Positions 33,430 through 37,435 are shown, numbered from the stretch's first letter. The stretch is DNA of 64,000 nt from Candidatus Poribacteria bacterium (GCA_965208325.1 OZ242326.1:3488001-3552000), one strand, 5' to 3'. Numbers and translations: made by a program. Notes: generated by a model not told the origin, from the letters alone.

Positions 33430-33457
33430 GAACTTTTCATTTCCTTGCGGTGTCATT
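33430..33457 (+). promoter_or_regulatory. ECF-type promoter upstream of the ECF/RNAP-like module
   Basis: GAACTT-N16-GTCATT, matching the AAC -35 / GTC -10 ECF consensus. Confidence 0.6.
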
Positions 33458-33568
33458 TAGAATGGAAGCTTACCAGATGACCTATCGCCCCGCCTTTCGC
33501 CGGTAATTCTGAAAAGCAATATCAAAATGTCCTGAACCTAAGTCGGTACTTTCTTAAGCTGATGAGCA

Positions 33569-34174
33569 TTGATATTACAATCCGATGAACTTCTCATTGA
33601 TAAGATTCTTCAACGCGATGCGGAGGCGTTTGAAGTGCTTTGGGCACGATATAGCGCGTCCGTCCGCCAACACATCATACGCACCGTACAGGACGAAAGT
33701 GCGGCCGAGGATTTGGTTCAGGAAGCATTCTTGCGTCTATGGACATCCGCTGAACAGTGGGACGGACGCGGTAGTTTCAAGGGGTGGTTCTTCCGCATCG
33801 CTACAAATCTCGCTCTCAATTATCTGCGCGCGCTGCGGCGGCGGAAGCAACAGCCCCTCGAATTACCGCCGGATGATTTTGATGATGCGGACGAATCCGC
33901 GCCCGATCCGGATTGGATGATTGACACGTCAATACGTAGCCCCGACGCGATGTTAGTACAAGCCGAGCAGTCTAATTTGCTTTGGCGGCTTGTTGAAGAA
34001 CTCCCCGAAGATAAACGAGACGTGCTTCAGCTTGTATACCTGAAAGAGATGAATCTTCGCGACGTTGCCGCTGAGATTGGCGTCCCGGAAGGCACTGTAA
34101 AGTCGCGTTTACACTATTCGATTCGGCGCCTCGCTCAAGAATGGAAGGAGATTGCAGACGAAAACGAAGAATAG
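33569..34174 (+). CDS. ECF RNA polymerase sigma factor (no adjacent anti-sigma)
   Basis: Region 2 AEDLVQEAFLRLW..FKGWFFRIATNLALNYLR. Region 4 LPEDKRDVLQL..VAAEIGVPEGTVKSRLHY. Confidence 0.93.
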   Translation: MILQSDELLIDKILQRDAEAFEVLWARYSASVRQHIIRTVQDESAAEDLVQEAFLRLWTSAEQWDGRGSFKGWFFRIATNLALNYLRALRRRKQQPLELPPDDFDDADESAPDPDWMIDTSIRSPDAMLVQAEQSNLLWRLVEELPEDKRDVLQLVYLKEMNLRDVAAEIGVPEGTVKSRLHYSIRRLAQEWKEIADENEE

Positions 34175-34221
34175 AGTAAGTGAGTAGGCGAGCGGAAGCG
34201 CAGCAAAGGCTATTTCTCGCC

Positions 34222-34263
34222 ACGCATTACGCATTACGCATTACGTATTACGCATTACGTATT
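34222..34263 (+). repeat. Heptamer tandem repeat (ACGYATT)x6
   Basis: acgcatt acgcatt acgcatt acgtatt acgcatt acgtatt. Confidence 0.9.
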
Positions 34264-34315
34264 CCACATCACGATTCACACTACACGAAATTCCCAATGG
34301 GAGGAGGAGACCGCA

Positions 34316-37300
34316 ATGTCACACAACGTCACCGCATTTTGGCACAAAGAATCTTTTGGCAAACTGATGGGCAATCGGTTGCCAGGGCTACTCGCCGAGC
34401 GATTACCGTTAGCTGGCTTCCATTTTGAATCTGTCAGTGCTTACACCGGTTGTATCAAAATCTCCCTCACGTCAACTGATGGCGACGTTGAAGTTGAATA
34501 CGCCGACATACCGCAGCCGGACGATGAAGGGATGTTCAAAATCGACGGAGAAAATTATGTAGTTGTTCCAACGGCTTCGACCCATAAACTTAAAAAGGCA
34601 AAAATAAGATGTGTTGGGGACCAACTATACAGTTATTTCAAAATGCGCTTGAAGGGTGCTTCCCTAGACCTGTCGTGGGAAGCAGCTTCTGTACGGTCAT
34701 GGCTCCCACTTGATGAATGGTCACAGCAATTTTTTCGCGACACATTTCACGCACAGAAACTACAGGAGACCAACTGGCTCGACAAGTATAGGCATCTTCG
34801 ACGGTTATACGTTCTGAACCGCGAGAAGGTGTTCACCCCCTCCCACTTCGGGCGGGCATGCCCTTTCGAGACGCCAGAGGGACCAAACATAGGTCGAATC
34901 CTTACGATTGCTAGGGGCGCCGAGATTCGCGGCGGAAAACTGGTCGTTGTTGATGAAAACCCAGAGGCAAACCTCGGCATAGCATCGGCAATGATCCCAT
35001 TTCTTGAACACAACGATCCTGCCCGGACAATGATGGGGGCTAACATGTTGTGTCAGTGGATGGCGCCTTCGTCTCCGGAGACAGCTCCACTACGCCAAGC
35101 CAAAGAGATTCCGAGGTTGGCTGCTGCTCCGGAGCCCGCACTTGTCCAAACGGGTTACGAACCGGATGTGCCTGACTTTTGGTGCGGTCGCAACCTATTG
35201 ACCGCTTTCATTTCATGGGGCGGCGATACCTTTGAAGACGGCATCGTGATAAGCCAGTCGTGCGCAGCGCGTCTGGATTTTCCTTACGCCGTTGAACCCG
35301 GCGATAAGATTGGCAACCGCCATGGAACGAAAGGGGTCGTTTCGCGCATCCTGCCTGACGATGAGATGCCGCACCTTGACGACGGTACACCGGTGGAACT
35401 TGTATTCAGTTTCGGTGGCTTACACGCGCTAATGAACGTCGGTCAATTACGAGAGGCGGTGATGGGGCGTATTGCACGATTGGAAAATAAGCCAGCAATC
35501 GTGACGCCATTCCACGCACCGAGTGCAGGCGAATTACGCGAACGCATCAAAAACGCAGGACTTCCCGAAGACGGCATGGAGATCCTCACACTTGGGCGAG
35601 ACGGTAAGAAGTTGGCAAGACCTAGCACAGTGGGTTGGGTTTACTGGGGACGTCTGGCTCACATTGCGTTAGATAAAATAAAAGCATCCGACTCAACCAA
35701 TATTGAAGACCATAGGTACTTCCAAACGCTCGGTGAACTTGAATACGATAGACTACGCAGCGCCTCAGTATTTGAAACATTGAGGGAACATTTTAACACA
35801 CGCGCCATGAATCGGACTGATGCGTATACGTTAGCGGAGCGCCTCGCAATAGGCGAAATTGAGCAGGCGGACCCACCGACGCCGATGTTCGCTAACCTCA
35901 CGAACCGGCTCTCGGCAGCAGGAATTCGGGTTGTATTCAGCGGCGGCAAGTTGACTTTTGGATTTGCGCCGCCGAATGGGAATACGCTCAAGCTTGCTCA
36001 GCCCGTCCCTCATCCGTGGTGCCGCGATCAATTCCTTGATGAGGTCGGTATCCGTGAAGACATCCCTGAATATCACGGACTTGCCGATGTTAACGCCAGG
36101 ACTGAACGGATGCTTGCGAGTCGTACACCGGCAAGTCTAACCCGCCAATCCCTCAAGCAGCTCCAAACGCGCGTGGCAGAATATGTCAATGCGCTCCTAA
36201 GTCCAACTGTCATGAACTTTAAGTCACGGAGCCTCTTCAGCGGACGCGCCGTCATTGCGCCGTCCGCAGAGTTGCGCGCTGATCAGGTCGGTATTCCGGT
36301 AGAGATGGCGTGGTCACTCTTTGGACATCATGTTACAAAGAGACTTGGTGGAGCAGAGGAAGTACGGCGGCGTAGTCAAGATGCAACACATGTCCTGGAT
36401 GAATTGATGGCGGGTTCGTGGGTAATTATGCTTCGTCCACCGGCACATACACTCACTAACCTTGTTGCGTTTCATCCGGTGCGGCACCCCGACCGCGTCA
36501 TCCGCGTGCACCCATTCGTGTGCGAGTTGATGAACGCCAATTTTGACGGCGATCAAGCAGCAGTCTTTCTCCCAATCACTGAAAGCGGACAACGCGAAGC
36601 CGGTGAACGGCTTTCCATCGCCGGGCATCTGAAATACGACCCAAGTTTATCCAAATTGCTGGCACCGACGCATGACGCGATGTGGGGATTGGCGCATTTA
36701 AGCCTCACCCCGGAAGGGCGCGGCGAAATCGCGGAGATTATCGGCACCGACATCCCCGCCCCACACGGTCTGGTTAGACAAGATTCGCTGGCAAAGTCAC
36801 TAGAAGCCATCCTCAAATGCGATGGAATAGACCGCACGATTGAAATAGCCGAACGTCTAATGCGGCGCGGGCTCGCAATTGCTAAGGAATCGGGTGCTTC
36901 CATGAGCGCATTCATCAGCAGCCCCGCCGGCAGTCCATCCGTCCCGGTAGATCCCGACGATGCACCCGCTTGGAACGCTTATGCTGAAGAGCTGGTCGAA
37001 TGGCTTGCCGCGTGTAACGACTTCGCAGACAACAACTTGGGACCGCACATCCTTGCGGCAAAAAGCCAACACGCACATAGTAGATTTCATCGAATCGCTT
37101 GTTGTGTCGGGGGGAGAGGTACGGTTTTGGACCTTCAAGGAAGAAATATCATCGTTCGCAACGGGTATAGCGACGGTTTAACACCCGAGGAACTTTACCC
37201 GCTTTCCGTCACTTCGCGGGAGGAGATTGTGCGGCTCAATTTGGAACGGCAACGGATAGAATTGGAATTGCGCAACGACAGTGAGCCGGCAGGATTCACC

Positions 37301-37435
37301 GTCCTAGTGCGTGCAATGCGTGCCAAACACCCAGGTTTCGTTTTCGCCCGAGCCGCTGCTACCGGCGAGACCGATCCGCTTACTGATGTGGACAGCCGTC
37401 TTTTCGTCGGGCTACCTGTATCAACGGAGGAGTGA
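34316..37435 (+). CDS. Single-chain minimal RpoB-RpoC fusion (two-barrel RNA-polymerase-like protein)
   Basis: Beta motifs in order: GRACPFETPEGPNIG, IPFLEHNDPARTMMGANM, FEDGIVIS, GDKIGNRHGTKGVVS, MNVGQL, QTLGELE. Beta' motifs in order: LAQPVPHPW, SGRAVI, NANFDGDQ, GLTPEE, ARAAATGETDPL. RBS GGAGGAGG. Confidence 0.92.
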   Translation: MSHNVTAFWHKESFGKLMGNRLPGLLAERLPLAGFHFESVSAYTGCIKISLTSTDGDVEVEYADIPQPDDEGMFKIDGENYVVVPTASTHKLKKAKIRCVGDQLYSYFKMRLKGASLDLSWEAASVRSWLPLDEWSQQFFRDTFHAQKLQETNWLDKYRHLRRLYVLNREKVFTPSHFGRACPFETPEGPNIGRILTIARGAEIRGGKLVVVDENPEANLGIASAMIPFLEHNDPARTMMGANMLCQWMAPSSPETAPLRQAKEIPRLAAAPEPALVQTGYEPDVPDFWCGRNLLTAFISWGGDTFEDGIVISQSCAARLDFPYAVEPGDKIGNRHGTKGVVSRILPDDEMPHLDDGTPVELVFSFGGLHALMNVGQLREAVMGRIARLENKPAIVTPFHAPSAGELRERIKNAGLPEDGMEILTLGRDGKKLARPSTVGWVYWGRLAHIALDKIKASDSTNIEDHRYFQTLGELEYDRLRSASVFETLREHFNTRAMNRTDAYTLAERLAIGEIEQADPPTPMFANLTNRLSAAGIRVVFSGGKLTFGFAPPNGNTLKLAQPVPHPWCRDQFLDEVGIREDIPEYHGLADVNARTERMLASRTPASLTRQSLKQLQTRVAEYVNALLSPTVMNFKSRSLFSGRAVIAPSAELRADQVGIPVEMAWSLFGHHVTKRLGGAEEVRRRSQDATHVLDELMAGSWVIMLRPPAHTLTNLVAFHPVRHPDRVIRVHPFVCELMNANFDGDQAAVFLPITESGQREAGERLSIAGHLKYDPSLSKLLAPTHDAMWGLAHLSLTPEGRGEIAEIIGTDIPAPHGLVRQDSLAKSLEAILKCDGIDRTIEIAERLMRRGLAIAKESGASMSAFISSPAGSPSVPVDPDDAPAWNAYAEELVEWLAACNDFADNNLGPHILAAKSQHAHSRFHRIACCVGGRGTVLDLQGRNIIVRNGYSDGLTPEELYPLSVTSREEIVRLNLERQRIELELRNDSEPAGFTVLVRAMRAKHPGFVFARAAATGETDPLTDVDSRLFVGLPVSTEE

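Follow-up and report, generated by a model that had tools for sequence, protein, structure and literature searches.

A 64,000-nucleotide stretch of a Candidatus Poribacteria genome (GCA_965208325.1 OZ242326.1:3488001-3552000), referred to here as the window, harbours a two-gene module in which a sigma factor of the extracytoplasmic function (ECF) type precedes a single-chain protein of 1039 amino acids (aa) that resembles the β and β' subunits found in the RNA polymerase (RNAP) of bacteria. The reading favoured here, to which we give a little less than even credence, is that the module encodes a sigma-dependent minimal RNA polymerase made of this one chain and its co-encoded ECF sigma factor. 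By the prevailing view, bacteria all use a single α2ββ'ω core for transcription and swap its sigma factors, and the only reduced single-chain relatives that we know of come from phages and plasmids, none of them using a sigma factor. An initial annotation of the window had interpreted the pair as an RNAP paralogue partnered with its own sigma factor, either a dedicated polymerase or a mimic of RNAP, and this interpretation is supported as a candidate.

All 18 peptide blocks that the initial annotation had quoted as RpoB blocks followed by RpoC blocks in native order are present in the 1039-aa translation in that order, the β-like ones within residues 64–476 and the β'-like ones within residues 560–1032. 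Searches with the Rpb1 and Rpb2 domain models of Pfam, which had been suggested as a check, matched RNA_pol_Rpb2_3 (residues 148–204, 5.8e-09), RNA_pol_Rpb2_6 (7.3e-39, best stretch 326–458) and RNA_pol_Rpb1_2 (residues 690–763, 4.7e-16). These three RNAP families are the only ones that Pfam gives for the protein, and no anti-sigma domain or family is among them. Among NCBIfam models, those for bacterial rpoB (1.9e-47) and rpoC (9.4e-21) match best, with scores far under the curated cut-offs. The protein scores 161.7 bits against a cut-off of 801 with the canonical RpoB equivalog model TIGR02013, and 73.3 bits against 963.5 with its RpoC counterpart TIGR02386. With the models for full-length β::β' fusions it reaches 152.9 bits (NF011417, cut-off 4632) and 137.3 bits (NF007172, cut-off 5372). 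A sequence search of the PDB returned RNAP β (4.6e-40) and β' (3e-18). The genome, assembled as one contig, also encodes canonical and adjacent rpoB (1305 aa) and rpoC (1415 aa) genes about 425 kb from the module, and the expectation of a separate rpoBC pair was thus borne out.

The protein belongs to a broad family. A word-seeded homologue search yielded 2245 matches among 8000 scored candidates, and the best 120 of these 2245 homologue clusters are all 990–1106 aa long, with 49–100% identity and a coverage of at least 95%. The initial annotation had staked its proposal on intact homologues of the same architecture elsewhere, and at least 120 such clusters of about 1000 aa exist. When the 50%-identity representatives were scanned exhaustively, 412 matches fell below 1e-30; among the 150 of them that were listed, 65 measure 940–1110 aa, and the rest are mostly shorter pieces, with one protein of 1948 aa. 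The named homologues are annotated as "hypothetical protein" and originate from Candidatus Poribacteria, Hydrogenedentes, Chloroflexi/Chloroflexota and Ktedonobacteraceae. No fusion of the sigma factor with the polymerase-like protein was seen in the best 120 near-length matches, the 150 representatives or the proteins of at least 1820 aa. Closer to the window, three related complete genomes contain colinear 1039-aa orthologues. Pairwise ratios of non-synonymous to synonymous substitution rates (dN/dS) among the four genes of the window's genus are 0.18–0.27, which indicates the purifying selection that had been predicted. The ESM Atlas holds clusters of the same family, labelled hypothetical, together with other fused forms of 1200–1800 aa. 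With the fused forms from viral contigs, the latter represent a diversity that may merit its own survey.

For the structural description, 150 of the 184 full-length family sequences were aligned, and the query was folded on that alignment with AlphaFold. The resulting model has a mean predicted local distance difference test score (pLDDT) of 93.3 and a predicted template modelling score (pTM) of 0.91. Its residues 1–548 superpose on the bacterial RNAP β subunit 8i23_C with the whole length spanned (Z 29.6, root-mean-square deviation 3.0 Å, 524 aligned residues), and the 1039-aa protein is therefore not an anti-sigma factor by fold or family. Mapped through the family hidden Markov model (HMM), it corresponds to E. 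coli β 119–147, 474–580, 652–707, 789–821, 1054–1148 and 1177–1341, and to E. coli β' 76–131 (weakly), 267–515 and 571–793. The β half thereby retains part of the protrusion, the fork with the Rif-pocket region, the PFLEH block, the double-psi barrel and the C-terminal clamp part. The β' half retains the N-terminal part of the clamp, the clamp coiled-coil, the double-psi barrel with the metal-binding motif, the funnel helices, a bridge-type helix and a short C-terminal block.

The 1039-aa protein has no counterpart of the β lobe (E. coli β 148–473) or of the flap, tip helix and SI2 included (E. coli β 822–1053); FEDGIVIS and GDKIGNRHG stand only about 15 residues apart. The β' zinc ribbon is absent, with no Cys cluster, and most of the rudder is gone. 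No counterpart of the trigger loop or the jaw was detected beyond E. coli β' 793, and the chain extends only about 50 residues past the bridge helix. In canonical RNAP, the clamp coiled-coil of β' is the docking site of sigma region 2, and the flap tip helix is the anchor of sigma region 4. The first of these elements is kept as a helical hairpin (model helices 584–601 and 606–627), which aligns with E. coli β' 267–309 and in which the motif A-N-x-R-L-x-R-L-L is conserved. The predicted 32-residue bridge-type helix aligns by its first part to E. coli β' 776–793 and, together with the GxRG...GLTPEE block before it, to 744–793, so that a bridge helix is present in the predicted structure, at a low conservation of 0.33. 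An insertion of 22 residues after the PFLEH block (aa 251–272, 35066–35131) is absent from 75% of diverse members.

In the basic motif of the β side, GDKIGNRHGTKG, G329, R335 and G337 are invariant among the 150 aligned sequences, and D330, K331, N334, H336, K339 and G340 are each conserved in at least 90% of them. The signature of the β-side double-psi barrel, GDK...RHG.KG at residues 329–340 with FEDG at 306–309, is thus invariant or at least 90% conserved. The metal-binding motif of the β' side reads NANFDGD in the window protein rather than NADFDGD. The initial annotation had quoted this motif correctly and had overlooked that Asn takes the place of the first catalytic Asp. Across the family alignment, the column of this first Asp contains D in 138/150 sequences, N in 10/150 and G in 2/150; the 138 have the intact form x-A-D-F-D-G-D, and the last two Asp residues of the triad are conserved in at least 90% of members. 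The Asn-type members are the window's own clade (P0001–P0008) plus P0027 and P0031, which are placed among D-type relatives (66–69% identity group). No read or contig variants at the codon of Asn742 were reported. With Asn for the first metal-binding Asp, catalysis in the window's clade may be weakened or altered.

Over 66 diverse members, the mean majority frequency is highest in the barrel blocks (0.69–0.72), reaches 0.41–0.45 in the clamp hairpin and is lowest in the bridge helix, while the segments outside the barrel blocks range from 0.33 to 0.6. Because conservation peaks in the barrel blocks and the catalytic residues are kept in at least 90% of members, selection falls on the active centre, and by this measure the family looks like an enzyme. 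Two members, P0156 and P0191, are full length, with their metal motifs destroyed (GFSAQQ and GFGGLQ) and the second Lys of GDK..RHG.KG lost, and are possibly non-catalytic derivatives. In E. coli β, changes at the positions D516, S531 and H526 confer rifampicin resistance. The corresponding stretch of the mini enzyme (aa 146–168, 34751–34819) has Q for D516 and Y for S531 and keeps H526. Owing to these altered equivalents of the Rif pocket, the enzyme might be naturally insensitive to rifampicin.

The upstream gene encodes a 201-aa protein with Pfam matches to Sigma70_r2 (4.6e-18), Sigma70_r4 (1.5e-12) and Sigma70_ECF (1.2e-07). It scores 119.7 bits with NCBIfam TIGR02937 (sigma70-ECF), against a cut-off of 42.9. 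With this score and with regions 2 and 4 only, it is a sigma factor of ECF group 4. An alignment of 35 orthologues shows an acidic linker between σ2 and σ4 with a conserved PDW.ID motif and an ordinary-looking region 2.2 (DLVQE.FLR.W), which makes binding to the host core plausible. The spacer between the two genes measures 141 nt, and the gene downstream of the sigma gene, where a cognate anti-sigma factor would be sought, encodes the RNAP-like protein instead.

The conserved adjacency of the two genes, predicted by the initial annotation, was found in the great majority of loci. In 54/58 testable loci from two phyla and metagenomes, the polymerase-like gene is immediately preceded, on its own strand, by an orthologous ECF gene; these loci include related, non-independent ones, and identity to the query falls to 35–38%. 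The count comprises the window and all five genome loci of the first scan, 9/12 testable metagenome loci (absent before L012, L016 and L023; L011, with no upstream sequence, stands outside this count), 24/25 further distinct loci of the window's phylum (absent at the broken locus L112) and 15/15 further loci of the second phylum, the one with the Capsulimonas record. In L009, L015 and L021, the stop codon of the sigma gene and the start codon of the polymerase-like gene overlap or nearly touch. In the metagenome locus L021, the module is also flanked by two further sigma-70-family genes (401–2065 and 5923–6960); one encodes a 555-aa product whose C-terminal half holds regions 2 and 4, and the other a 346-aa product with a C-terminal extension.

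Presence and absence follow the same pattern. Among 176 genomes of the window's phylum, 33 contain the polymerase-like gene, 32 the sigma orthologue and 31 both. Genome G056 has a sigma gene with TGA and TAG stops and no polymerase gene, G031 has a 159-aa polymerase remnant and no sigma gene, and G010 has a partial polymerase gene with a TGA stop. The sigma and polymerase-like genes are retained together or lost together. Of 251 genomes sampled in the second phylum, 17 carry the module. In a further genome (G049), the polymerase-like gene is split into two open reading frames (ORFs) of 610 and 497 aa.

Autoregulatory promoters of ECF sigma factors have an AAC-containing −35 element and a GT(C)-containing −10 element about 16–17 nt apart. 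A sequence of this type, TGAACTTTTCATTTCCTTGCGGTGTC, lies about 115 nt upstream of the start codon of the sigma gene in the window. The interval delimited by the initial annotation begins, at 33430, with this promoter (33429–33454) and not at an ORF start. The motif (T/C)GAAC-N16-GTGTC, usually in the form TGAACyTT...CGGTGTC, was found upstream of the sigma gene in 33/35 aligned loci, the other two having less than 100 nt of upstream sequence, and in 14/15 further loci of the second phylum, amounting to 47/50 overall. By this motif, the promoter of the sigma gene is autoregulatory. A position weight matrix (PWM) was built from 31 unique sites and run over the whole 4.7-Mb genome, together with spacing variants. 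The operon site scores 43.3 bits and no other site exceeds 18.1 bits, leaving the former as the sole strong site in the genome. The exact core pattern recovers the operon's own site in 10/10 genomes, and two small genomes have no other match. Of four extra matches that were inspected, three are inside coding sequence and one, in G024, precedes a membrane-protein ORF. By the exact, PWM and spacing searches, the only recognisable target of the sigma factor is thus its own operon. The match in G024 (L138, G024:C1:5486998-5487023) is a near-perfect second promoter, TGAACTTTCCTCACTCTTGCGGTGTC, before a long multi-pass membrane-protein ORF and is the sole candidate extra target seen.

If the module is a minimal sigma-dependent polymerase, its operation can be outlined as follows. 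The ECF sigma factor would recognise TGAAC-N16-GTGTC before its own gene, making the pair an autoregulated two-gene module, and the promoter would probably be fired first by the host core with the ECF sigma factor. The co-transcribed 1039-aa chain would represent a bacterial β-β' fusion cut down to the barrels, the fork, the clamp core with its coiled-coil and the bridge helix. The sigma factor may then dock on the retained clamp coiled-coil and act as the initiation factor of the mini enzyme, which would initiate and elongate RNA without α or ω. The apparent retention of the clamp coiled-coil, when almost all dispensable modules have been deleted, argues for this scheme. So do the conservation of the active centre, the confident structural model, the linkage to the ECF gene, the co-loss of both genes, the conserved promoter, the purifying selection in the window's genus and the lack of any anti-sigma family among 54 neighbouring ORFs. 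Several observations weigh against it. The flap with its tip helix and the zinc domain are deleted; a trigger loop is lacking, and conservation of the bridge helix is poor. The fixed 16-nt spacing of the promoter is what a holoenzyme with the host core would read. The window protein itself has NFDGD, and 2/150 members combine full length with a fully degenerate active site. Finally, further promoters of the TGAAC-N16-GTGTC type did not emerge from the 10 genomes, in which 19 other matches compare with 10 for a reversed-pattern control.

The same promoter and the same deletions bear on a second reading, which the initial annotation had not considered and which is unlikely and still has to be taken seriously. 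The sigma factor may use only the host α2ββ'ω core, and the mini polymerase would then be the sole output of its regulon, acting independently of sigma on a special template. The templates envisaged, at the same low likelihood, are single-stranded DNA, RNA, primers or nicks, in a YonO-like mode. This division of labour would account for the canonical geometry of the promoter with its fixed spacing, for a mini enzyme devoid of the flap that positions sigma region 4, for the own-operon promoter as the only strong site in the genome and for the ordinary region 2.2 of a sigma factor that could plausibly bind the host core. It leaves, however, an ECF sigma factor without an anti-sigma factor and with positive feedback as its only target, and thus no evident input. 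The kept clamp coiled-coil and the strict co-loss also fit a direct partnership, and the stop/start overlap in some lineages suggests stoichiometric production.

The third reading, decidedly improbable for the family as a whole, takes the fused protein for a pseudo-core or decoy that binds the ECF sigma factor, either as an anti-sigma factor by mimicry or as a sigma reservoir, with catalysis dispensable at least in the window's clade. It draws on the position of the gene, which occupies the usual slot of an anti-sigma gene with no anti-sigma family nearby. It also draws on the active site: Asn replaces the first Asp of the triad in 10/150 members from at least two separate groups, purifying selection persists in the Asn clade, and the two members with a destroyed triad and a lost Lys are still full length. 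The pseudo-core reading accordingly receives a higher weight for the window's Asn clade. However, the catalytic residues (0.69–0.72) are conserved above the presumed sigma-binding hairpin (0.41–0.45), and a decoy would not need the fork, PFLEH, GDK..RHG.KG and DFDGD across phyla. Asn can serve as a metal ligand, and by general chemistry the substituted residue should still be able to ligate metal.

That the gene is an artefact, either a chimera put together from rpoB and rpoC pieces during assembly, as the initial annotation had warned, or a decaying pseudogene, is excluded for practical purposes: short-read contigs do break in the spacer at the heptamer repeat, upstream of the gene, whereas a 14,940-base short-read contig from an independent assembly spans 34222–37500, including the β-to-β' junction, with 0 differences, and the three complete-genome orthologues, the more than 120 clusters, the dN/dS of 0.18–0.27 and the pLDDT of 93 all speak for a genuine gene.

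Table 1. Positions of the module's features in the window
Feature	Position	Strand	Remarks
ECF-type promoter TGAACTTTTCATTTCCTTGCGGTGTC, TGAAC-N16-GTGTC	33429..33454	+	exact pattern match; −35 TGAAC, −10 GTGTC
ECF (group 4) sigma-70 family gene	33569..34174	+	201 aa, TTG start
Six tandem heptamers (ACGCATT/ACGTATT) in the intergenic spacer	34222..34263		sequence
Fused β-β' RNAP-like gene	34316..37435	+	1039 aa
β-like half (aa 1–546)	34316..35953	+	family-HMM map, structural alignment
β-side catalytic basic motif GDKIGNRHGTKG (aa 329–340)	35300..35335	+	aligned to E. coli β 1063–1075
β'-like half (aa 547–1039)	35954..37432	+	family-HMM map, Pfam Rpb1_2, NCBIfam rpoC 9.4e-21
Helical hairpin (aa 584–627), counterpart of the β' clamp coiled-coil	36065..36196	+	model helices 584–601, 606–627
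Metal-binding motif NANFDGD (aa 740–746)	36533..36553	+	Asn742 for first Asp, codon AAT
32-residue helix (aa 957–988), bridge-helix counterpart	37184..37279	+	model

Downstream of the fused gene follows a convergent gene for a short-chain dehydrogenase, and the remaining neighbours, housekeeping or metabolic genes, vary between loci. The absence of phage genes nearby, already remarked on in the initial annotation, holds for the neighbours as well as for both proteins of the module, in which no phage or defence families were seen. Pfam searches of 54 neighbouring ORFs from nine loci gave no phage, mobile-element or anti-sigma families, a PADLOC defence search of the module gave no match, and PHROGs matches were to generic RNAP and sigma families only. 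Small genes of the VOC (glyoxalase/bleomycin-resistance) family lie a few kb from the module in three loci by Pfam (L007 4562–4951, L010 2047–2631, L012 7238–8344). An 83-aa ORF of the window (32980–33231) looks VOC-like by eye, without a Pfam match at 1e-5, and this may be a coincidence. Ankyrin-repeat proteins are encoded near the module in the window (39396–40553) and in a related genome (L007 12716–13156).

The heptamer array at 34222–34263 is present in the operon spacer of the window's genus only. Short-read contigs break at this array, and the summed depth goes up. Exact period-7 arrays of at least three copies occur 17 times in the genome, versus 1–3 times for periods 5, 6, 8 and 9, and include the related units AATGAGT, AATGCGT and AATACGT. 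The array recalls the intergenic heptamer repeats reported 5' of an alternate β' gene in Beggiatoaceae (PMC4679880).

Several known systems resemble the module in part. In form, its nearest analogue, likened by description, would be Orf6 of the yeast cytoplasmic killer plasmid pGKL2, a fused Rpb2::Rpb1 protein of 982 aa in which each parent has lost about half of its length, according to a 2010 survey (PMC2919709). Both proteins join the second-largest subunit to the largest, in this order, within a single chain of some 1000 aa, and neither comes with an α-like subunit (PMC2919709). Orf6 is borne on a eukaryotic plasmid, is derived from eukaryotic subunits and has no sigma factor, whereas the mini-enzyme family resides on bacterial chromosomes, is nearest to bacterial RpoB and RpoC by NCBIfam and is tied to an ECF sigma factor. 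The survey also covers the full-length Helicobacter β::β' fusion, phage enzymes and YonO-like proteins, and its accessible sections make no mention of a half-size fusion on a bacterial chromosome (PMC2919709).

YonO of the SPβ prophage is described as a homologue of multisubunit RNAP that consists of one polypeptide of about 100 kDa (PMC5467207). Like YonO, the mini enzyme is a single-chain, two-barrel RNAP homologue, a likeness drawn from descriptions. Unlike the prophage protein, which is very distant from β and β', it matches the β and β' models of Pfam and NCBIfam at 1e-39 to 1e-47, stands in a non-phage context and has a sigma factor. YonO is not known to need a sigma factor or to have a trigger loop. 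The absence of phage neighbours and the strong similarity to β and β' set the family apart from YonO-like proteins, YonO itself being judged by its description.

The full-length β::β' fusions of the Helicobacter and Wolbachia type, of about 2800 aa, share the fusion order of the mini enzyme. Those found here are 1939–2668 aa long, with a complete domain set and 10–14 Pfam RNAP domains, and the ones labelled Patescibacteria or Omnitrophica measure 2200–2650 aa. Such fusions are the complete and only core subunits of their organisms, whereas the mini enzyme coexists with normal rpoB and rpoC genes. The fused or split RNAPs of phages (φKZ/AR9-type and viral metagenomes) likewise have reduced β and β' parts and work without α or ω. 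Long matches on viral contigs cover about residues 96–1027 of the query (for example 159–993) at 21–31% identity (L142, L146, L158, L182, L190 and others), and none of the best 80 viral loci holds a member of the family. Phage RNAPs are reported to use no sigma-70-family factor of their own (PMC7824862).

Marine Beggiatoaceae offer a precedent for an additional RNAP-subunit-like gene next to the usual one: their alternate β' paralogues have an incomplete Asp triad and were proposed to be negative regulators (PMC4679880). In the two species concerned, the alternate gene is closely preceded by direct repeats of a heptamer (PMC4679880). The module shares with this system the additional gene, the incomplete triad and the upstream heptamers. 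The Beggiatoaceae paralogue differs in being a full-length β' only, without a β fusion, and in being followed by a sensor kinase, with no sigma factor. Literature searches did not find a published description of an ECF-linked fused β-β' protein, and it is by these searches that the system counts as undescribed, as the initial annotation had called it. The main text and part of one supplement of the ECF reclassification (PMC7826278) contain no mention of an RNAP-like neighbour (Rpb, rpoB).

Taken at its widest, the finding would be an orthogonal two-protein machine spread over several phyla, in which a 115-kDa chain and a private ECF sigma factor initiate transcription without α, ω, flap, lobe or trigger loop; this proposition is possible, with the balance tilted modestly against it. 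If it is true, a half-size core kept vertically on bacterial chromosomes would show how little enzyme suffices for sigma-directed initiation and would provide a tractable holoenzyme of 1240 residues on which structure and mechanism could be studied. It could also serve as a compact, orthogonal system for expression. Since several accessory modules are missing, such an enzyme might resist inhibitors that act on them. If the protein is instead a pseudo-core that titrates its sigma factor, ECF sigma factors would gain a regulator of a new class. Under both readings, the family concerned is one whose members are annotated as "hypothetical protein" wherever a source names them.

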